Shown: piece after piece, positions 12,596 to 28,802 of the stretch | Layout of the letters: every line of letters starts with the position of its first letter | Numbering within the stretch: the stretch's first letter is position 1 | Virus genome (UHGV): UHGV-0212823 | Reading direction: 5' to 3' (one strand) | Length of the DNA: 35,607 nucleotides | From: a virus | Made by a program: the position numbers and the translations under genes | The notes under the pieces: model-generated | The model's input: the letters and a program-made list of their open reading frames with translations, nothing else | The model's database searches: none | What the model was told of the DNA's origin: nothing

Positions 12596-13567
12596 TTAAT
12601 TGAATTTTTCTTTAAATTTTTTGTTGGCTACTGCAAAGTAATCATCAAGGGCACGGCGGGTAAAATTAGGACACATTTCAACCAACTCTTCTTTCAATAG
12701 ATCCTGAGTCCAGCGTCTTTGCCTGCTGTTTGTATTTTTTATAACACTTAACATTGAGCCAACCAAAAAACTGAAATCCATTTCCTCAACTTCTGGCGTT
12801 CCAGTGATCGTTCTTTCAAATGCTATTAAATTATCAGGGCGTAAACCAATTTCACTATTAACTGGAAGCCCATCAGTGGGGAAATAGTTCATTGCATCCA
12901 ATTCTAACAAACGTATATTTCCATCTTTATCCTTTGTGATTTTACCTCGTTCAAATTCTTCCATAATATTAATTAATCGCCCGTTAGTATCTTTTATTAA
13001 TGGTCCACCCAGATTTATTAACCTATTCGATTCATAACCTTTCCCAGTTGAGTATATCCTTTGAAGATCCAGAACCTCAGCGCCAATCAATGGTAGATCA
13101 TAAATCACTTCATTTAGATATTCAGGGCCAGACACATATTCATAATCACCAAACCGACCTTTCTCAAGATAGGATTCCAACGTCATATCTTCATACTTAG
13201 AGCCATACCTAGCCGACATTTTCTCTTTCGAACTTTCGAACTCCTCCAGCAAATACTGTTTAAATTCTTCTTTATATGCTGAAAGTAAATCTCCTTCGCT
13301 CGCATTTTTCAGATTAGGATCACACATCAGCCTGAAAAGAAACATTTCTTGCAAGTGGTTAATAATTGGTACTTCTTTGTAAATCATCTCCCGACCAACA
13401 AATTTTTCTCCATATGGCAATCGAACAGACAAAATCAGATCGTGAGACAAGCCAAGCTCTATCAAATCCAAAACAGTAACGTTTCCTTCAACTATTGAGG
13501 AAAGCCGTTCCGCAGCTTCATCAAGCCCTATCCATTTCTTTATTTTTAGTAGACGATCACTAACCAT
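12596..13567 (-). CDS. hypothetical protein, 323 aa, AT-rich cargo gene
   Basis: Clean ORF with RBS GAGGTGG; far more AT-rich than neighbours; no motif recognised. Confidence 0.6.
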   Translation of the reverse strand: MVSDRLLKIKKWIGLDEAAERLSSIVEGNVTVLDLIELGLSHDLILSVRLPYGEKFVGREMIYKEVPIINHLQEMFLFRLMCDPNLKNASEGDLLSAYKEEFKQYLLEEFESSKEKMSARYGSKYEDMTLESYLEKGRFGDYEYVSGPEYLNEVIYDLPLIGAEVLDLQRIYSTGKGYESNRLINLGGPLIKDTNGRLINIMEEFERGKITKDKDGNIRLLELDAMNYFPTDGLPVNSEIGLRPDNLIAFERTITGTPEVEEMDFSFLVGSMLSVIKNTNSRQRRWTQDLLKEELVEMCPNFTRRALDDYFAVANKKFKEKFN

Positions 13568-13755
13568 TGCACCACCTCATACTCTGGAATCTAAGAGCCA
13601 TGTCAGCCAGCATAGATTACGGTTCGGGAATCAGCTTAGGCATAGCCTTTTCTTTGGATGGATTATCGTCTACTGAGGTAAACATGTCTAGATAGCACTG
13701 TATATTATGCCAGTGAAATTGAGAGAACACGATGTGAGGTCAGTTGTGACCTGTA

Positions 13756-13962
13756 TCAGGTTTTCAGGTCATGACGCGATTCGGCAATACGATTATTTAT
13801 CCACTCGTCGATCTCACTTTCGATAAATGCTATAGAACGCACACCAATCTTCACGGACTGCGGGAAGCGCTTTTCTTTAAGCAGCCGATAAATCCAAGCC
13901 TTGCTATACCCTGTTCTACGAAGTACCTCGGAAAGGCGTATAAATCTACTATTCTGAGCCAT
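13756..13962 (-). CDS. alpA: AlpA-family transcriptional regulator/excisionase-like protein (second copy); start trimmed to MAQNSRF
   Basis: RLSEVLRRTGYSKAWIYRLLKEKRFPQSVKIGVRSIAFIESEIDEWI, paralogous to the 12291-12488 protein. Confidence 0.75.
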   Translation of the reverse strand: MAQNSRFIRLSEVLRRTGYSKAWIYRLLKEKRFPQSVKIGVRSIAFIESEIDEWINNRIAESRHDLKT

Positions 13963-14607
13963 ATGATGTTTCCTGTGTTGCGGACATAACAAAAGAACCT
14001 GGCACTGAGTGACAGGTTTAATATTAATGATTCAAGATTAAGGATGTGGTTTAACCCACAGCATGCAAGCATGTGCGGTTAATAAATTCTTCAGCAAGAT
14101 AGATGCAGCTAAGGGGCTACAGAGTGGCGACTGAATTTCAACAAGGGACGAAACATACCTAGTAAGTGAATTTCTGAAATACACTCATAATACATTTGCT
14201 CATCCCGCATCGGGCTGAGAATCCAGATTTTAAAGAACTATTATACAATTGCATTTATCCTCCAGAACTTCTGGAAGACTGCTACACAAGGGCGTAGCGC
14301 GACTTACACTTAGGCAAGCCTCCCCATTAATTTTAAAGAACATCGCACTTTTCAGTGCTCGATTGATTCACTTTTCAGCGACGGAGAACAAGTGTTCGTT
14401 GTGAAAAGAACTGATCCGATTTCCAACCCTTCTTCAGGGCATGTCCGATGTCTTCACCGAGTAAATCATTTTAAAGAACTAGCACTTCAACAGTGCCGCT
14501 GCTTGTCTAAAGAACAATGGTCGTCAACTGAAATGAAAGATAGATCACTACTGTCTACATGTCCAGCGTTTTTCACATCATAAAAATGAACACGGCCTCA
14601 CTAAATA

Positions 14608-14730
14608 GTCGTTCCAAAACCGCCAAAAGTTGTTCCAGAGTTGTTCCAACTTGAATGTGTGCATATAAATAAAGACAATAACTTATCCTTATAAATATAC
14701 ATATGGAACAACTGGAACAAGTGGAACGAC
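14608..14730. repeat. nonamer array module A: three direct GTYGTTCCA copies and three inverted copies around an AT-rich spacer
   Basis: GTCGTTCCA 14608-14616, GTTGTTCCA 14629-14637 and 14640-14648; inverted TGGAACAAC/TGGAACAAG/TGGAACGAC tandem at 14704-14730. Confidence 0.6.
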
Positions 14731-14759: not shown

Positions 14760-15947
14760 TTATCCAGCAGCCTTACCCGCCAGTTCATCCAGATAGTCAG
14801 CGTACCACTGGAGCATCTCCCGTCTCCCATCGAGGTACTGAGCATGGTTGTAAGTACCACGGATAGTATTCCTGTCAGCGTGCGCCAGTTGAGTTTCTAT
14901 CCATGCAGAATCAAATCCTTTCTCATGCAATACGGTGCTCATCGTGTGTCTGAAACCATGGCCAGTAGCCTTTCCGCCATAGCCTATACGTTTAATCACC
15001 TGGTTAATGCTGGCCTCGCTCATTGGTTTATGTGCATCGTTGCGACCGGGGAAGACATACTTACCCCAGCCGGTGATCTCTTTTAGCTCCAGCAGATGAG
15101 ATTTAACCTGTCTAGAAAGTGGTACAAGGTGAGGACGGCGCATCTTCATGCGTTCCTTAGGGATCTGCCACAAATCATTGTCCAGGTCGAATTCAGCCCA
15201 CTCTGAGGCGCGGAGTTCAATGGTCCTGACACTGGTGTACATAAGCAGTAATGTCGCAATGCGTGTCACTTTACTACCACTATAAGCATTCACTGCGTGA
15301 ATAAATGGACCAAGTTCGGCGGGGAGTAGGTGTGGGAAGTGATTTTGCTTGGGTGATTTTAGTGCGCCAGCCAGATCGGTTACGGGGTTTACCTCTGCTC
15401 TGCCAGTAATTATCGCGTAAGTGAAAATCTGCCGACATGCCTGACGGGTTTTCTTGAGCTTATCCAGTACTCCTCGTTCTTCCATTTTGCGCAACACTGA
15501 CAGCATGTCCATCGGCTTGATTTCGGTAATGGCCTTCTTTCCGACATACGGGAATATATCCTTTCGTAGATATTCAAGAATGTCCTCAGCATACCCGGAA
15601 GACCAGTTCAACTTCTTATGCTCATGCCATTCAAGCGCCAAAAGCTCGAAGCTGTTATTAATTGCTAGATTCTTCGCTTCTCTGGCGGCTTGTTTAACTT
15701 CAGAGGGATCGTCACCTGCTGCAAGTACACGCTTGGCTTCCGTACGTTTGTCTCTGGCTTCAGCAAGCGTCACATCAGGATAAACGCCAATGGAAAGCAG
15801 CTTTTCTTTGCCTGAATAGCGGTACTTCATGCGCCAGTACCTGGAACCATTCGGGTTAACCAGCAGATACAAACCACCACCATCAGACAGCTTATATGGT
15901 TTATCTGTTGGCTTTGCAGTACTTATCTGGCGGGCTGTTAGCTTCAT
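14760..15947 (-). CDS. int: tyrosine site-specific integrase, P4/CP4-57 type
   Basis: 395 aa; N-terminal arm-binding-type domain (LSDGGGLYLLVNPNGSRYWRMKYRY) and C-terminal catalytic region with HGFRHT and Tyr-containing RGTYNHAQY motifs. Confidence 0.9.
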   Translation of the reverse strand: MKLTARQISTAKPTDKPYKLSDGGGLYLLVNPNGSRYWRMKYRYSGKEKLLSIGVYPDVTLAEARDKRTEAKRVLAAGDDPSEVKQAAREAKNLAINNSFELLALEWHEHKKLNWSSGYAEDILEYLRKDIFPYVGKKAITEIKPMDMLSVLRKMEERGVLDKLKKTRQACRQIFTYAIITGRAEVNPVTDLAGALKSPKQNHFPHLLPAELGPFIHAVNAYSGSKVTRIATLLLMYTSVRTIELRASEWAEFDLDNDLWQIPKERMKMRRPHLVPLSRQVKSHLLELKEITGWGKYVFPGRNDAHKPMSEASINQVIKRIGYGGKATGHGFRHTMSTVLHEKGFDSAWIETQLAHADRNTIRGTYNHAQYLDGRREMLQWYADYLDELAGKAAG

Positions 15948-22820: not shown

Positions 22821-23405
22821 TCACTTATAGGTAAATCCTGGCGCATCTTTTTTACTGCCCCAGTAAATCGAACGTTCAGACATCTGCGCCACATACCGGA
22901 ATATGCGGTCGCCGGGATAAGCGGCCTGCTGCGATTCATCGGTATAGCGATCTGGGAAAGGACGCTGCCAGTCTTCAAAAATATTACTGATGGTGTACTG
23001 CAGGGCGTTCGTCCCGCCAGCGGTCGCCCCTGTACTGGATACCCGCCCTTTAAACAGGAGATCGGCAACCTGGACAACACCGTGATCATCCATAGCCACC
23101 AGATAGATTTCGGCATTTCTGCCCACGCATCGCTCATTCAGCGTGGTGGCAAAGAGGGACATATCCAGACCTGAGAGGGTCATTTTGACCTGCGTCGGGC
23201 TGGTCGTGCTGGTTTCACTGGCATCATCAACAGAACCCATGCGCCCCATGCCGTAATAGACATAACCACCAATAACCAGTGTCCCGGTCCCGGAATGCAC
23301 ATAGACGGTACCGGATTCAAACTGAATATTGGCGGCGATCGCGACCGTCACCCTGTCGCGGGATAACCAGTCCACCATCGAATCAGAAAACGGGGAATAC
23401 AGCAT
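22821..23405 (-). CDS. minor tail protein, 194 aa
   Basis: Position and coupling within the tail tip module. Confidence 0.45.
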   Translation of the reverse strand: MLYSPFSDSMVDWLSRDRVTVAIAANIQFESGTVYVHSGTGTLVIGGYVYYGMGRMGSVDDASETSTTSPTQVKMTLSGLDMSLFATTLNERCVGRNAEIYLVAMDDHGVVQVADLLFKGRVSSTGATAGGTNALQYTISNIFEDWQRPFPDRYTDESQQAAYPGDRIFRYVAQMSERSIYWGSKKDAPGFTYK

Positions 23406-23998
23406 TAAAATGCCTCCTCAAGCTCCAGCGTGTAACTGGTAAAAACACCCGGCACACGGTTACCGGCACCCTGCTGGTTATCTTTCAGTTTGAAAATGCC
23501 GTAGGGTTTCGCGACCTCAATGACAGCATTAGCAGGCGGAGAGCTACGCAACATCGGCGCAAATGTAATCATTGCGGTACCGTTCGCCGCGCTCGTCACA
23601 TCGGCTGTAACCATCTTCAGTTCATCGTTAACAGTGAAATAATCGCCCTGTCTGAGCGCAACTACCCCCGGCGTCCAGCCCTTGCTCCGAAGCTGGATTC
23701 CGGTCTGATTAGCGCCATCAACAACTGGCGTTCCAGCAGGCACTCTGCCACTTCTGCCCCAGTCACGCACTTTTACCCTGCCATACTCACCGTCAAGCGA
23801 AGCCACCAGAGCATCAATGCGCCTGGATTTTTCGTCAGTCAGGTTATTAAAAGTCAGAGAACATACCCAGCGGGTACCAGGGAAGCGTGCTGTCTGCGAT
23901 GAACCATTGAAGGGAGAACGGAAGGTTTTGGTGTTACTCTCTGGTCGCCAGGTCAGCGACGCGGGACAGACATCTTCCGGCCATTCGAGTACAGCCAT
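23405..23998 (-). CDS. minor tail protein, 197 aa
   Basis: First gene after the tape measure gene in the late direction. Confidence 0.45.
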   Translation of the reverse strand: MAVLEWPEDVCPASLTWRPESNTKTFRSPFNGSSQTARFPGTRWVCSLTFNNLTDEKSRRIDALVASLDGEYGRVKVRDWGRSGRVPAGTPVVDGANQTGIQLRSKGWTPGVVALRQGDYFTVNDELKMVTADVTSAANGTAMITFAPMLRSSPPANAVIEVAKPYGIFKLKDNQQGAGNRVPGVFTSYTLELEEAF

Positions 23999-24081
23999 AA
24001 ACTCTCCTGAAAATTTTGATTAGACTCTGATAATTGTTTTAACATCAGCATGCTATTTCACTTTTAAAGGAATTAATTAAG

Positions 24082-24300
24082 ATGGAAAATATCGAGCTAG
24101 AACAACTGAAAAAAGAAATTGAAACTCTTCAGATGCGTATGGGAAGCGCAGAATACTTGATAAAATTTTTGTATCAGCGACTCCCTCAGCATGAAATTGA
24201 TGAACTGGGTCAAGAGATGTCAGAAGCCTTAAAATCCTACGGTGAAGACACCTTTGTGGGTGGATTACTGACTGAGGGATTGAGACTTTTAAGAAAATAA
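24082..24300 (+). CDS. small hypothetical protein, 72 aa, opposite strand inside the tail operon
   Basis: AT-rich; predicted helical, heptad-like N-terminus (IELEQLKKEIETLQ); occupies the gap between tape measure and minor tail genes. Confidence 0.4.
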   Translation: MENIELEQLKKEIETLQMRMGSAEYLIKFLYQRLPQHEIDELGQEMSEALKSYGEDTFVGGLLTEGLRLLRK

Positions 24301-24375
24301 CTCAACAATAAAATCATCAAACGGCAACTGACTGCCGCTTTCAACTTTTTGGATCACTAACGACTCCTTGCGATT

Positions 24376-27300
24376 TTACACACCCAGTAATCTCCTGGCC
24401 TGACCGTTGGTCTGAAAATCGCTCATCATCTCCTGGCGCGCCTGTCGAGCACCGTTTCTTGCTCCCTTGGCGGCTGCCTGTTCCATTGCCTGCTTCAGTG
24501 CGGCGTCTCCGTTCCCAGATATGTTGAAGTGCTGATGAATAATCGTATCACCGCCGCCTGATGTAGCACCTGGAGTGCCAATCATGCGAACACCCAGCGA
24601 ACCATCAGCTGATCGTGTCAGCGGCATAATGGCTTCCGGCCCCGCCTCCCCCATAAGCCCGGCGCCTTTTGCAAAAGCAAAATATGTCGGTGTGCTAACA
24701 ATGCTGTTGCTGTAAGCGCTCAGACTTTCAGAGGCATATGCACCACCTTTTGCATTCAGCTTTATGCCTGAAGCAGCAGAGTTATAAGCGCCTGAAGGAG
24801 TGCTACCAGATGCAGCTCCAGCGCCCGCACCAAACATACCGCCAATTGAACTGAAAAAGCCGCTGTTACTGGCTGAGCGCAAAGAATCCACCAGCATCGC
24901 ATTGAGGATAATTTTCTGCATAGACTGAAGCACCGAACTGGCCCAATCTTCCCAGTCAACCTTATTACCGGCCAGTGCATCAGATATGTTACCCACCAGC
25001 CCGGACATTGCGTTATTCACCAGGTCAGCAGACTGAGATGCATAATCAGAAGCAGTGTCAGCCCAGTTTGCAAAACCTTCACGCATACCCGTTGTCCAGT
25101 CACTACGCTGAGCGTCAGAAGCTGAGTAGTAAGCTTCCTGATCTCGTAACCGTTCATCGAGATAACGTTTATTCAGTGCCAGTTCCTGACGGTATAGGTC
25201 TTCCGAAATATCACCTGACTGGTACTGGCGCTGCAGATCAACGTTCTTCTGCTGAAACTCTTCCCGGATACGCAGCACTTCCTGCATCCGTTCACGCATT
25301 CGGCTTCCCTGACCATACCCGGTAAGTTCTGCCTGGTTAGATGCCCTGGCACTGGCATTCGAATCAGCAAGGTTAGCTTCATACGCCGCTAATTGTTCGC
25401 GGATTTTCTGCTGATCAATCAACGCAGCATTCTGCAACAGGGTTTGTTTTTGTGCCTCGGTGAGAGACGTAAGCTCTCCCTGGCTAACCTGGTATTTCAG
25501 TTTTGCCAGTTCGGTATTTTGACCAGCCAGAGCGATTTGCTCTTTCTGCTGCTTAATGAGTTTGTCGTAAGTATCCGCCGTTTTTTCGGCTTCAGTTTTT
25601 CCACCTTTTGCTTTCGGCTTGTTAGCTTGATTATTTCTCCATTCCTCTAAACCATTATTAATTAACTCCTGACGGCTGGTTTGGTAACGAGGATCGTTAG
25701 AAGCGAAGCCAAGATCATCAGCAGAATAACTTAATCGTAAGCGTTCTCTCTCCTCGCCTTTACGGCGAGATAATTCAAGTTCACGCCTACTTTTTTCAAT
25801 CGCATCCACCTGTTTAGTATTAAGCTCAGCCTGAGGTGACCGTAACGGAGAGTTAACCAGTCCCTGACGAGACATAAGCAGTGCATTTCCCAACCCTAGC
25901 AGACGGTTAAACTCTGTATGCTGGCCGTTCATAATTAATAATGACTGATAGGCTGAATTCTGTTCTGCTGCCTGCTGACGAATAAGCGCAATACGACGAT
26001 GCTCTACCCCCTCAAGAACCTCCTGAATAGACTGCGATTTAGCCTGCATCTGTGCCAAGCGTTCTTGCTCAATAGCTAAAGCATTAGTGGCATCAGAAAG
26101 ACCTCGAGTAGCGTCATCTATGCTCTTAAGATGGTTAACCATGTAACCAGCAACTGTAGGACCAGGGTTAGCCAACATATGCTGGTAACCGGAAATTTCT
26201 TCCCGTAACTGCCTAACCTTTTTCGCCTGCTCATCAATAAGCCGGTTTTGCTCGTCTAATGCCTGTCTAGTCTTGGCTTCATTATCTGAAGCTTCAGGTA
26301 ATGACATGGTTTTTGTTTTAGAGCGTATCTGATCAATGGTATTTGCATAGTCTTGTGCGGATCGACGAGCTTGCTCCTGATTCTGGTACATGGTGTACCA
26401 TGCACCTGCTCCCAACATAACCAGACCAGGAATCCCGCCAACCAACCCAAGAGCACCACCCATCAATCGAGAACCTAACGATGTCACATTATTTAGGGCT
26501 TCCTGCGCTGCGGTCCTTGCCGAAATATTTCTAATTAATGATGCTTGAGCATCAGATAACCTTTTCTCCGCTGCTGCCTGTGCATCAGTTCCCCTAGTAG
26601 CAATTAAAGCTTGTTGTGCCCGATACACAGTTGCACGAGCGCGAGCCGTGGATATTTGAGTACCTCTCACTTGCGCTTCAGCAAGCGCAATTTCACTCTT
26701 TGCTGCATTTAATAATCCAGATGTCGCTGAAAATGCTCCTGATGCTATATCTCCGAACCAACGCGCTGCGCCAACAGCAACAAGAACACCTGCGGCAGTT
26801 GCAACTTCATCAATGTTATCTGCAATCCCATTTAATGCGCCTGTTAATGTCCGACTAACACCGCTTGCTTCATTTGCGCCGCCAACCCATGCCATAAAGG
26901 CGTTTTCAATTTTTGTTGTTGCAGCGGATACAGTCTGCGGCATTGCGTTGTATTCTTCACGAAGTGATCCTAGCTGGCTGATTAGTGCCGGAACAACCTT
27001 GTCAGCAGTAAGTTGGCCTGCGTCAGCCATTGCCTTTAAGTCTTTTCTGGCTACCCCCATCCCAGAGGCAAGAGCTCTGATAACGCGATCGCCATTCTCA
27101 TTAACTGAGTTAAACTCCTCACCACGTAAAACCCCTTGAGCCAGCGCTTGGCTGAATTGGGTAATAACAGAACTCGCCTCTGCCGTGCTTGCACCAGAAA
27201 GTTTCAATCCGGTAGAAATAGCCTCAGTAACATTTAGTACTTCTTCGGAGCTATAACCGAATTCACGCATTGATGCCGCTGAGCGTGCAAACAGGTTTGC

Positions 27301-27687
27301 GTTATCTGAAAATGCTGTTCCTGTTCGCTGACTAATATCCATCAGAGTGCGTTGTGACTGATTGAAGTCATCAGTTGATTGCGAGGCCTGCTTCAATCGA
27401 GCATTAACCGAACTCCATTCATCCGCAAGAGATATCAAATGCCCAGTAGCGTACGCACCGGCGAAAGCGCCAGCAAGCCCCATAGCAGATGATTTTGCAG
27501 AATTAAGTTGGCTTGTTACTTCTGCCAGCGCTCTCTGTGTCTCTCTTGATGCTGCAGCAGCTTGACGCCCCCCATTCTGCATGGTTTTGTAATAATCTTG
27601 TCCCATACGTGAAGCGCGAGAAATTTCTGTCTGGAAAGATTGTGAATTTGCGGACACTTTAATAATCAATTCTCGCAAGGTGGCCAT
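24376..27687 (-). CDS. tail tape measure protein
   Basis: 1103 aa, Ala/Gln-rich coiled-coil-like, follows the G/GT chaperone pair. Confidence 0.85.
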   Translation of the reverse strand: MATLRELIIKVSANSQSFQTEISRASRMGQDYYKTMQNGGRQAAAASRETQRALAEVTSQLNSAKSSAMGLAGAFAGAYATGHLISLADEWSSVNARLKQASQSTDDFNQSQRTLMDISQRTGTAFSDNANLFARSAASMREFGYSSEEVLNVTEAISTGLKLSGASTAEASSVITQFSQALAQGVLRGEEFNSVNENGDRVIRALASGMGVARKDLKAMADAGQLTADKVVPALISQLGSLREEYNAMPQTVSAATTKIENAFMAWVGGANEASGVSRTLTGALNGIADNIDEVATAAGVLVAVGAARWFGDIASGAFSATSGLLNAAKSEIALAEAQVRGTQISTARARATVYRAQQALIATRGTDAQAAAEKRLSDAQASLIRNISARTAAQEALNNVTSLGSRLMGGALGLVGGIPGLVMLGAGAWYTMYQNQEQARRSAQDYANTIDQIRSKTKTMSLPEASDNEAKTRQALDEQNRLIDEQAKKVRQLREEISGYQHMLANPGPTVAGYMVNHLKSIDDATRGLSDATNALAIEQERLAQMQAKSQSIQEVLEGVEHRRIALIRQQAAEQNSAYQSLLIMNGQHTEFNRLLGLGNALLMSRQGLVNSPLRSPQAELNTKQVDAIEKSRRELELSRRKGEERERLRLSYSADDLGFASNDPRYQTSRQELINNGLEEWRNNQANKPKAKGGKTEAEKTADTYDKLIKQQKEQIALAGQNTELAKLKYQVSQGELTSLTEAQKQTLLQNAALIDQQKIREQLAAYEANLADSNASARASNQAELTGYGQGSRMRERMQEVLRIREEFQQKNVDLQRQYQSGDISEDLYRQELALNKRYLDERLRDQEAYYSASDAQRSDWTTGMREGFANWADTASDYASQSADLVNNAMSGLVGNISDALAGNKVDWEDWASSVLQSMQKIILNAMLVDSLRSASNSGFFSSIGGMFGAGAGAASGSTPSGAYNSAASGIKLNAKGGAYASESLSAYSNSIVSTPTYFAFAKGAGLMGEAGPEAIMPLTRSADGSLGVRMIGTPGATSGGGDTIIHQHFNISGNGDAALKQAMEQAAAKGARNGARQARQEMMSDFQTNGQARRLLGV

Positions 27688-27703
27688 TGTTCATTCTCCA
27701 GAA

Positions 27704-27726
27704 ACAAAAAAACCGCCGAAGCGGTT
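27704..27726 (-). terminator. rho-independent terminator after the inserted membrane-protein gene
   Basis: Minus-strand hairpin AACCGC-TTCG-GCGGTT followed by U7. Confidence 0.5.
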
Positions 27727-27733
27727 TGTATTA

Positions 27734-28069
27734 TTATTTTTCCCAGACTTTTCGTCGGGCTTCCTCAAGATAATCTTCATCTGTTTTTGTAGGATGATCA
27801 CTTGATAACAAATCACTACCACAATGTTTGCATTTGATGGCTTCTTTTTTTATTAATTCAGCACAGAATGGGCATTTTTTCATACCATCAAATTCCAGCT
27901 TCTCTTTTTCTTCAAACTGTACATCTTTTTTAATAACTAAAGAGTGGACTAAGGCAACAATGAACAGCAGAGCCCCATAAATCCACCACCCCAAAAAAGA
28001 GCGTCCTTTGCTACTTGCAATCAGTGCAGGTATCAGACCAATAACAATTGAAATAAGTAAGATTTCCAT
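27734..28069 (-). CDS. small membrane protein with C-terminal zinc ribbon, 111 aa (moron)
   Basis: Two hydrophobic helices ([35 protein letters not shown]) then CPFC...CKHC; AT-rich; own terminator. Confidence 0.55.
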
Positions 28070-28125
28070 GACCTTCCCCTAAACATCATCAATGAGGTAA
28101 ATCCTATTATCTTACTGAATAAATG

Positions 28126-28802
28126 TCACTGAGTTGCTGCTATTAATGCAGCCTCGAGCCCTGCAAACGGGTCATTCGATGCTGATTGCTCGTCCCCACC
28201 CCAGCGCAGGATCGCATCTTCCAACGCTACTTTTGCCCCCTGTGATCCGTAGACGGCCGAGACGACCTGAGCAGCCTGAATATCACCGCGAATATCGCCA
28301 ATGGGGCTTTGCCTGTCGAACTCAATCCACATCAAAAGCTCGCTTGCTGTCATGGTCTGCCGAAGTTCTGAGAGCGTGCGCCCCATGCGGAGCGCAAGCG
28401 CCATCAGAAACTTTACGCCGGGGGTTGCGACTTTTCCCGCGCTTCATCCGCGCTGTTGATAAGGTCAAGCGCCTGTTTTAGCAGACGTGAGTGAACGGGG
28501 CCGTAAATTTCACGTACCTGCTCTTCTTCATCGACGCTGAATACCGGTTGCTTGTTGGTATCGCAAAGGACATCAATGAACAGCACGACGTCAGCACAAA
28601 GATTACGGTGTGCTTTTTCTGATACAGATACCTCGCCTTCTTCATCAGCACCAGATTTTGCAATTTCCTGCCAACGTAACCACCCTTCGCCAGAAGGTTC
28701 CCGCAGAACAACCTTCACACCGCCCCATTCAGGGACCGTAATGATTTTATGACGAAAGCCTGACATTTTAGCCAGCGCCAGTTCTTTAAGACTCTTAGCC
28801 AT
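28126..28802 (-). CDS. tail assembly chaperone G-T fusion via programmed -1 frameshift (T-like extension 28126-28443)
   Basis: The -1 frame is open from 28443 to 28126 and overlaps the last 10 codons of the G-like ORF; GGAAAAG lies in the overlap at about 28431-28437. Confidence 0.5.
28413..28802 (-). CDS. tail assembly chaperone (lambda G-like)
   Basis: 129 aa acidic protein between major tail protein and tape measure. Confidence 0.7.
   Translation of the reverse strand: MAKSLKELALAKMSGFRHKIITVPEWGGVKVVLREPSGEGWLRWQEIAKSGADEEGEVSVSEKAHRNLCADVVLFIDVLCDTNKQPVFSVDEEEQVREIYGPVHSRLLKQALDLINSADEAREKSQPPA

Follow-up and report, generated by a model that had tools for sequence, protein, structure and literature searches.

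A membrane-anchored zinc-ribbon protein in the HK97 gene 15 slot upstream of the tape measure gene: a moron product with a possible role in superinfection exclusion

Several prophages express envelope proteins that stop an incoming phage at or before DNA entry. The gene considered here, for which such a role is proposed, belongs to the virus genome UHGV-0212823 (35,607 nucleotides (nt); this whole stretch is called the window). It is an open reading frame (ORF) with an ATG start at 27734..28069 on the minus strand, encodes 111 amino acids (aa) and lies between the tail assembly gene T and the tape measure gene. The closest comparison is offered by gp15 of HK97. According to the citing text of PMC3594210, gp15 was the first element to be called a moron and confers superinfection exclusion (Juhala et al. 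2000; Cumby et al. 2012). It is an inner-membrane protein, and its effect depends on the tail region of the incoming phage (PMC3594210). The order in HK97 is GT, gp15 (annotated as 'moron product'), a terminator and the tape measure gene, whereas the junction of HK022 is empty, with 19 nt from gp14 to the tape measure gene. Hence, the junction is the original moron slot. The initial annotation of the window had described it as an otherwise tightly conserved position, which does not fit the slot of HK97 gene 15, empty in HK022 and filled by a cassette in all 78 close relatives described below.

Imm of T4 is a second relevant system. In a 2026 preprint (10.64898/2026.03.06.709160), Imm was reported to bind the tape measure protein of T4 and to prevent genome translocation, R33 and W50 being important. 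SieA of P22, Ltp of TP-J34, Cor, and Llp are further entry-blocking proteins of prophages (PMC10883804, PMC3952083, PMC3594210). They resemble the window protein in its proposed role, but they share no sequence or domain similarity with it and are encoded at other genomic locations; the targets of Cor and Llp are outer-membrane receptors. Ltp is reported to act on the tape measure protein. Furthermore, the PhiESI preprint described lysogens of a related prophage that resist superinfection, the determinant being unmapped.

In its layout, the window locus is similar to that of HK97. Both genes occupy the same junction of GT, cassette, terminator and tape measure gene, and gp15-like and zinc-ribbon cassettes alternate in this slot among sibling prophages. 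Both proteins are small, have a membrane helix, deviate in composition and possess their own expression signals, although the promoter is putative in the present case. Homologues in bacteria outside phages exist for both. Their architecture differs: gp15 has 62 aa, one N-terminal hydrophobic helix and no cysteines, whereas the window protein has a two-helix hairpin and a four-cysteine (C4) ribbon within its 111 aa. Homology to gp15/YebO (PHROG 5031) was considered; the only match, 15 residues of the C-terminal helix at E = 0.05, was rejected as chance. Exclusion has been demonstrated for gp15 and is proposed by analogy for the window protein.

Cassette exchange between gene T and the tape measure gene

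The gene in the region 27688-28135 is almost certainly a moron cassette, consisting of a promoter-like site, a ribosome-binding site, the ORF, and an intrinsic terminator. This reading is based on the replacement of the cassette by unrelated ones in siblings, its foreign composition, its promoter-like site and terminator, and the constraint on its ORF. With the G protein as anchor, 80 IMG/VR loci were collected, 78 of which extend to the tape measure gene. In these relatives, G is 84-100% and T about 85-98% identical. The gap between T and the tape measure gene is occupied in 78/78; it spans 291-575 nt (1642 nt in one case, with an IS5 insertion) and has a guanine-plus-cytosine (GC) content of 0.31-0.44. 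At least 11 unrelated cassettes are found there. The zinc-ribbon protein is encoded at 28 loci and a gp15-like protein at 8, and the remaining cassettes include at least six different ORFs with lipobox-containing signal sequences and two others with signal peptides. One type (2 loci) has no convincing ORF; on inspection of the sequences, all other types display membrane, lipoprotein, or signal-peptide features. In an E. coli prophage, a three-helix membrane protein fills the slot. Searched against Pfam, the alternative cassettes matched no family of known function, and established exclusion families, Ltp and Cor among them, were not found. Homology between the genomes ends directly after the T stop codon and returns at the ribosome-binding site of the tape measure gene.

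Morons vary between genomes that are otherwise homologous, some carrying the element and others lacking it or having another in its place, and the empty junction of HK022, gp15 in HK97 and the at least 11 cassettes correspond to this pattern. They also differ from their surroundings in base composition. The cassette has a GC content of 0.361 (ORF 0.360; 0.286 at third codon positions), compared with 0.483-0.570 in the flanking genes (tape measure gene 0.483, G 0.497, T 0.570) and 0.495 in the whole window. A terminator of its own, a further mark of morons, is present as well. A gene for tail assembly or structure would be conserved together with the tail module; the zinc-ribbon gene is replaced where G is 84-100% identical, is absent from HK022 and is found outside tail modules. 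Checking related phages for presence or absence had been suggested in the initial annotation, and unrelated cassettes indeed replace the gene where G is at least 84% identical. These swaps rule out one outcome that the same annotation had set against its proposal, namely that every relative keeps the gene and needs it for tail assembly.

The signals around the ORF seem to be shared between cassettes. A consensus scan revealed a promoter-like site at 28101..28129 on the minus strand, with a -35 element GTGACA (28129-28124), a 17-nt spacer and a -10 element TAGGAT (28106-28101), matching 9/12 consensus positions. The -35-like hexamer (28124-28129) overlaps the TGA stop codon of T. Among the 55 distinct gap sequences of the relatives, 40 have the pattern GTGAC[AT]-N17-TAnnnT at the stop codon of T. 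They cover five kinds of cassette, and the spacer is constant at 17 nt across them even though its sequence varies. This constancy is the best available argument that the putative promoter is real. As GTGACA is shared at the T stop codon across cassettes, the conserved end of T would supply part of the putative promoter. This suggests that the end of T may serve as a docking promoter half and that incoming cassettes each bring a -10 element exactly 17 nt downstream. A Shine-Dalgarno-like GGGGAAGG can be read from the sequence at 28072..28079 (minus strand), just 5' of the ATG.

The intrinsic terminator (27700..27727, minus strand) is followed after 12 nt by the start codon of the tape measure gene. 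Its hairpin, AAACCGC-UUCG-GCGGUUU on the minus strand at 27727..27710, has a 7-bp stem and a UUCG loop and is followed by a U-run. The predicted fold has -9.9 kcal/mol (z = -2.07), and 7/200 shuffles fold equally well. The initial annotation had spoken of a strong hairpin with a U-tract; both elements are there, but the hairpin is that of a typical intrinsic terminator. The count of such hairpin patterns in the 2-kilobase region is not above chance (3 seen vs 2.0 expected). The terminator is considered real because its position is conserved, not because of this count: 52 of the 55 distinct relatives, whatever their cassette, have a hairpin with a T-run ahead of the tape measure gene. Lambdoid late transcription is antiterminated and would pass through such a terminator. 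The terminator would thus matter only for transcription of the moron in the prophage state.

Sequence divergence indicates that the gene is maintained by selection. Compared with its closest relatives, nonsynonymous divergence (dN) is 0.004-0.008 and synonymous divergence (dS) 0.14-0.18, giving dN/dS of 0.02-0.05, and therefore the ORF is a real, constrained gene under strong purifying selection. In relatives of 65-78% protein identity in the same slot, dN reaches 0.15-0.29 with synonymous sites saturated. The 80 closest IMG/VR copies (64-99% identity) all lie in this slot, including one at a contig end and the IS5 case. The identical protein is indexed in 2433 blocks of an assembly collection, in which the source names indicate Salmonella enterica. 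The initial annotation had called the gene a recently acquired moron. Cassette swaps, own signals, and GC content agree with a moron; a recent acquisition was rejected on synonymous divergence, since 13-16% of synonymous sites differ between copies with 99% identical protein. These comparisons mark the cassette as an old, well-maintained resident of this phage group.

In the case with the insertion (locus L030, 4337-5742, on a contig shared with L108), an IS5-type element with a 326-aa InsH-like transposase on the opposite strand separates the zinc-ribbon gene from the start of the tape measure gene. The moron is intact, but the tail operon is probably crippled by the insertion.

The flanking genes were assigned with Pfam, which bears out the placement between the G/T chaperone genes and the tape measure gene. 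All are on the minus strand. The tail assembly protein T (28126..28404; PF06223, E = 9e-20) forms the upstream flank, in the -1 frame relative to the tail assembly chaperone G (28413..28802; PF06222, E = 2e-55). Downstream, the HK97-type tape measure protein of 1103 aa (24376..27687; PF06120, PF20155, PF09718) starts with an ATG at 27687. The G and T frames are both open only across the 31 nt of 28443-28413, a stretch that holds GGGAAAAG (28438-28431, minus strand). It is likely the slippery site of G/GT, consistent with the usual frameshift, and contains no canonical X XXY YYZ heptamer in the G frame. The closest deposited phage to the window is Salmonella phage FSL SP-016 (73-83% identity); no close match was found among E. 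coli genomes.

A membrane hairpin fused to a zinc ribbon

The initial annotation had predicted an AT-rich 111-aa ORF with two transmembrane helices and a CxxC...CxxC ribbon, and hydropathy, AlphaFold2, Pfam, and GC content are all in agreement with this. Kyte-Doolittle windows of 19 residues exceed 1.6 around residues 10-13 and 32-41. A structure prediction, likewise suggested at that stage, was run with AlphaFold2; the model (mean predicted local distance difference test score, pLDDT, 78) shows helices for residues 2-20 and 25-45 and a short one for 50-60, then a small beta ribbon (63-87) and a C-terminal helix (97-110). The first predicted transmembrane helix (residues 2-20; 28010..28066, this and the following on the minus strand), supported by hydropathy, AlphaFold2, and alignment, ends in a conserved IPAxIA motif. 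It is followed by the four-residue loop K21-G-R-S24 (27998..28009), which is the most conserved segment of the family with a column conservation of 0.97. The second helix (residues 25-45; 27935..27997) contains the invariant F25, W28, W29, Y31, A39, and H42 and a near-invariant G32. The predicted zinc ribbon (residues 63-87, KKCPFCAE...KCKHCGSD; 27809..27883) is recognized by Pfam and by alignment, and AlphaFold2 gives it short beta strands. Its match to Zn_ribbon_3 (PF13248) reaches 30.2 bits, the gathering score being 27. The cysteines are arranged as C66-P-F-C69 and C80-K-H-C83. All four are invariant in the 87 aligned homologues, in which 18 residues in total are invariant. The C-terminal helix (residues 97-110; 27740..27781) is specific to the 111-aa class, other classes having other C-terminal extensions. 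The protein matches PHROG 8436 over its full length (E = 5e-50), with residues 1-110 aligned to positions 1-109 of the 110 in the profile.

As for the topology, the ribbon and the C-terminus are probably cytoplasmic. This orientation is favoured by the 14 lysine and arginine residues in the C-terminal part, the cysteine ligands, and the domain extensions of longer family members. With two helices and a cytoplasmic ribbon, the invariant KGRS loop would be placed at the periplasmic face.

The hairpin shows some resemblance to T4 Imm. T4 Imm is small, resides in the inner membrane and has a hydrophobic hairpin, and the same is predicted for the window protein. Both Imm_superinfect (PF14373) and the present family have an (L/I)P..IA motif, then a short basic loop (RGSKS vs KGRS) and an aromatic GW or WW. 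In the homologue from Pseudomonas phage R656, a genuine PF14373 domain (E = 1.6e-18) replaces the hairpin and is fused to the same CPYCAE...C..C ribbon, at the same site upstream of the tape measure gene. T4 Imm, itself a member of PF14373, served as positive control for this model (7.2e-16). When the hairpin of the family was aligned with Imm_superinfect in hhalign, P = 1.9e-4 and a probability of 48% were obtained over 56 aligned columns, compared with P = 0.15-0.22 for reversed controls. The alignment pairs IPAxIA-KGRS and WW with LPxxIA-R(G/H)xx and GW and needs a 10-residue deletion. A distant relationship between the hairpin and Imm_superinfect is suggestive only. T4 Imm, for its part, lacks a zinc ribbon. 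It is encoded among the early genes of a myovirus with a lytic life style and not by a moron of a prophage. A profile of the hairpin only was tried as a bridge to Imm_superinfect and yielded none, as its top 120 matches were all hairpin-plus-ribbon proteins. Since every one of them also contains the ribbon, hairpin and ribbon constitute a fixed unit, which behaves as a family of its own. The C4 ribbon as such is shared with generic membrane-anchored ribbons of PF13248, e.g., the N-terminus of TcaA; the TcaA match in NCBIfam (E = 6e-4, far below the cutoff) is limited to the ribbon and carries no functional information.

Among phages, the family is mobile. It is also present in the T-to-tape-measure slot of Cronobacter and E. 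coli prophages and of Salmonella phage FSL SP-016. In an Edwardsiella prophage, the gene is located between the tail genes L and K of a lambda-like tail module, and T overlaps the tape measure gene, leaving the junction empty. A class of 173 aa follows the tailspike gene at prophage ends and was found once beside the host psp operon. These copies outside the slot (Edwardsiella L/K, prophage ends) exclude an obligatory role in tail assembly. In deposited phages, tblastn detected homologues of 27-43% identity immediately upstream of tape measure genes. This holds for 22/22 IMG/VR loci of the Pseudomonas D14C type and about 70/80 of the Klebsiella ST846-OXA48phi9.2 type, as well as for Pseudomonas phage YMC11/02/R656, the locus L336 and the K. 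pneumoniae protein P0086. The tape measure proteins adjoining these distant homologues are of three Pfam types: TMP_3, TMP_2 with TMP_4, and TMP_4 alone. There are exceptions, such as a protein 80% identical to the R656 homologue that lies before a lambda I-like gene (L181) and the copy of Klebsiella phage KP12, which is located elsewhere. A strict tie of the family to the site upstream of the tape measure gene was rejected in view of the Edwardsiella, L181, prophage-end, and non-phage copies. The D14C-type slot was also seen to hold two cargo genes, with an ORF for a BamE-like lipoprotein (138 aa; L020, 3015-3431) just upstream of the zinc-ribbon gene.

The family extends far beyond phages. 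When 1.84 billion cluster representatives were searched with a profile, 345 clusters were obtained at E <= 1e-30, a number that rose to 4038 at E <= 1e-10. In a scan of the GTDB with one genome per species, proteins with 52-61% identity to the core were found in Anaerolineales, Bryobacteraceae, Planctomycetaceae, Parvibaculum, and metagenome-assembled genomes of Bacillota. In Acidobacteriota, Chloroflexota, Planctomycetota, and Bacillota, the core carries variable C-terminal extensions and has no tape measure gene nearby. An identity of 52-61% over a core of 87-105 residues is unusually high between a Salmonella phage moron and proteins of distant phyla; either the constraint must be very strong or the family has spread widely by horizontal transfer. 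In occasional longer members, Pfam recognizes additional Ank, TPR, HEAT, HIRAN, or ribbon domains. Non-phage members of 87-91 aa (L413-L416) are translationally coupled to a conserved 104-aa signal-anchored protein. In three of these four loci, a 96-aa secreted repeat protein precedes them. L414 and L415 contain arrays of small genes on the same strand, with an Ltp-type lipoprotein in L414 and a TM2-plus-ribbon gene and an adjacent integrase in L415. The arrays are reminiscent of integron-like cassette arrays.

Possible roles of the protein

The proposal that we prefer, with a probability of roughly 40%, is that the gene encodes a prophage-expressed inner-membrane protein that blocks the tape-measure-dependent genome entry of superinfecting phages. 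It is drawn by analogy, from the slot shared with HK97, the envelope-type cargo found there nearly throughout, the fusion to an Imm domain, and the recurrent adjacency to tape measure genes. The initial annotation had already pointed to superinfection exclusion or another anti-phage function, which agrees with the precedent of gp15 and with the Imm-fused homologue. In the lysogen, the gene would be transcribed from its own promoter, and the transcript would end at its own terminator. During lytic growth, antiterminated late transcription would continue into the tape measure gene. The protein would reside in the inner membrane, its ribbon and C-terminus probably being cytoplasmic and its KGRS loop facing the periplasm. 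The step blocked would be the opening of the DNA channel by the tape measure protein of an incoming siphophage, and exclusion would follow as for HK97 gp15 and T4 Imm. A broader proposition is that hairpin-plus-CPxCAE-ribbon proteins as a whole serve superinfection exclusion at the inner membrane. They would be a large family so far unrecognised in this role, distantly related to T4 Imm and directed at the tape-measure-dependent DNA entry of siphophages. The junction of G/T and the tape measure gene in HK97-like prophages would be a cassette-exchange locus with a -35 element in the T stop codon, from which the prophage would express whatever cassette arrives with a -10 element at 17 nt. Taken as a whole, this proposition is tentative and rather doubtful.

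Several observations weigh against an exclusion function. Many unrelated cassettes are inserted next to the tape measure gene, and the adjacency may therefore mean no more than that the intergenic site is permissive. Outside phages, the core is widespread without a tape measure gene, and thus a general membrane role is possible. A basic KGRS loop at the periplasmic face would contradict the positive-inside rule. The similarity to Imm is below Pfam detection: in hmmscan, the window protein has no PF14373 match at E <= 0.1, whereas the T4 Imm and R656 homologue controls were detected, and the hhalign probability is only 48%. PHROG 8436 is labelled 'unknown function', and literature searches on the family, its accessions, and PHROG 8436 gave no functional study. 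PADLOC-DB v2 gave no significant match, the best (E = 0.003-0.006) being to ribbon-sized stretches of the LmuB and HEase models. Other searches were equally uninformative about function. NCBIfam returned only sub-threshold matches confined to the ribbon, a sequence profile search of the PDB found only bL32-type ribbons (E ~0.09), and Foldseek against BFVD retrieved only uncharacterised 'zinc-ribbon containing' viral proteins.

The main rival is lysogenic conversion that is not directed at phages. The membrane protein would then alter the envelope physiology of the host, e.g., stress tolerance, signalling, or host interaction, and would retain the role of its chromosomal homologues. The hairpin-plus-ribbon core in non-phage chromosomes of many phyla, sometimes coupled to the 104-aa signal-anchored protein, and the 345 clusters at E <= 1e-30 are in line with such a role. 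So are the diverse fitness factors generally encoded by morons (PMC3594210) and the other slot cassettes, which are uncharacterised lipoprotein or signal-peptide ORFs with no Pfam family. However, the only tested occupant of the slot, gp15, is an exclusion protein, and its non-phage YebO homologues do not have that activity (PMC3594210). One homologue of the window protein is fused to a T4 Imm-type domain, and in unrelated tail modules the family turns up repeatedly, immediately before tape measure genes. Lysogenic conversion is therefore considered unlikely. An abortive-infection or membrane-damage system, idle until infection and then depolarising or permeabilising the cell so that no progeny is produced, would suit a small, prophage-borne membrane protein with two helices, and some prophage defences do act after DNA entry, e.g., Tab (PMC10884400) and Tai (PMC11364771). 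Such a sensor-effector is nevertheless improbable, given that the protein has no similarity to PADLOC models, that the cassette includes no partner gene and that the sequence gives no hint of a pore or an enzyme.

The remaining explanations concern the phage itself. Read-through of the late operon could provide the protein with a function in the phage's own lytic cycle, such as lysis timing, handling of its own tape measure protein at the membrane, or tail assembly. The gene does lie inside the late tail operon in the same orientation, and it adjoins the tape measure gene in several lineages. Nonetheless, siblings with G and T of 84-100% and about 85-98% identity have unrelated lipoprotein or signal-peptide cassettes or gp15 instead, HK022 and the Edwardsiella prophage have nothing at the junction, and the same gene occurs at prophage ends and between the tail genes L and K. 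Together with its own promoter-like site and terminator, this makes a lytic-cycle function very improbable. The idea of a non-functional hitch-hiker ORF in AT-rich filler DNA is refuted by the selection analysis and can practically be dismissed: dN/dS is 0.02-0.05 at dS of 0.14-0.18, protein identity of 65-78% is kept at saturated synonymous sites, 18 residues are invariant in 87 homologues, and the identical protein recurs in 2433 blocks. The composition lends this idea no real support either, as long ORFs arise by chance more rarely in AT-rich than in GC-rich DNA.

Other features of the window and significance

Further regions of unusual composition were noticed in the window. A second low-GC insert (0.36) is found at 23999-24375, between the tape measure stop codon and the gene of a distal tail protein (23405-23998; PHROG 1302). 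It holds an ORF of 72 aa on the opposite strand (24082-24300) with no Pfam or PHROG match. The insert is missing in the sibling prophage L424 and present in L423 and L425. It looks like a second variable moron slot, possibly with a 'reverse moron'. A low-GC region (0.36-0.42) at 12600-14700 lies beside the integrase gene (14760-15947) and includes a 323-aa ORF (12596-13567) without a Pfam or PHROG match, a candidate cargo gene. As the integrase gene is internal to the window, the window follows the vegetative order of the phage: lysozyme (119-658), early genes, integrase, tail, head, and terminase. Three adjacent transfer RNA genes on the minus strand (1319-1549) correspond to Gly-TCC, Arg-TCT, and Met-CAT.

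The novelty of the locus is a different cargo in the known slot of HK97 gene 15, and the protein belongs to a large, strongly conserved and uncharacterised family. Without anti-phage activity, it would merely be another uncharacterised moron. If exclusion is true, the gene would be a very common phage-resistance determinant in lysogens of Salmonella, Enterobacter, Cronobacter, and Klebsiella, with a bearing on the host range in phage therapy and on competition between lysogens. It would also be a second, unrelated protein acting from the gene 15 slot. The relative with the Imm-domain fusion offers a handle on small membrane proteins that stop tape-measure-mediated DNA entry. Moreover, a slot with a dozen envelope-type cassettes behind a shared promoter-like architecture represents a compact natural library of candidate exclusion factors, and this combination of shared architecture and diverse cassettes makes it a convenient experimental system.

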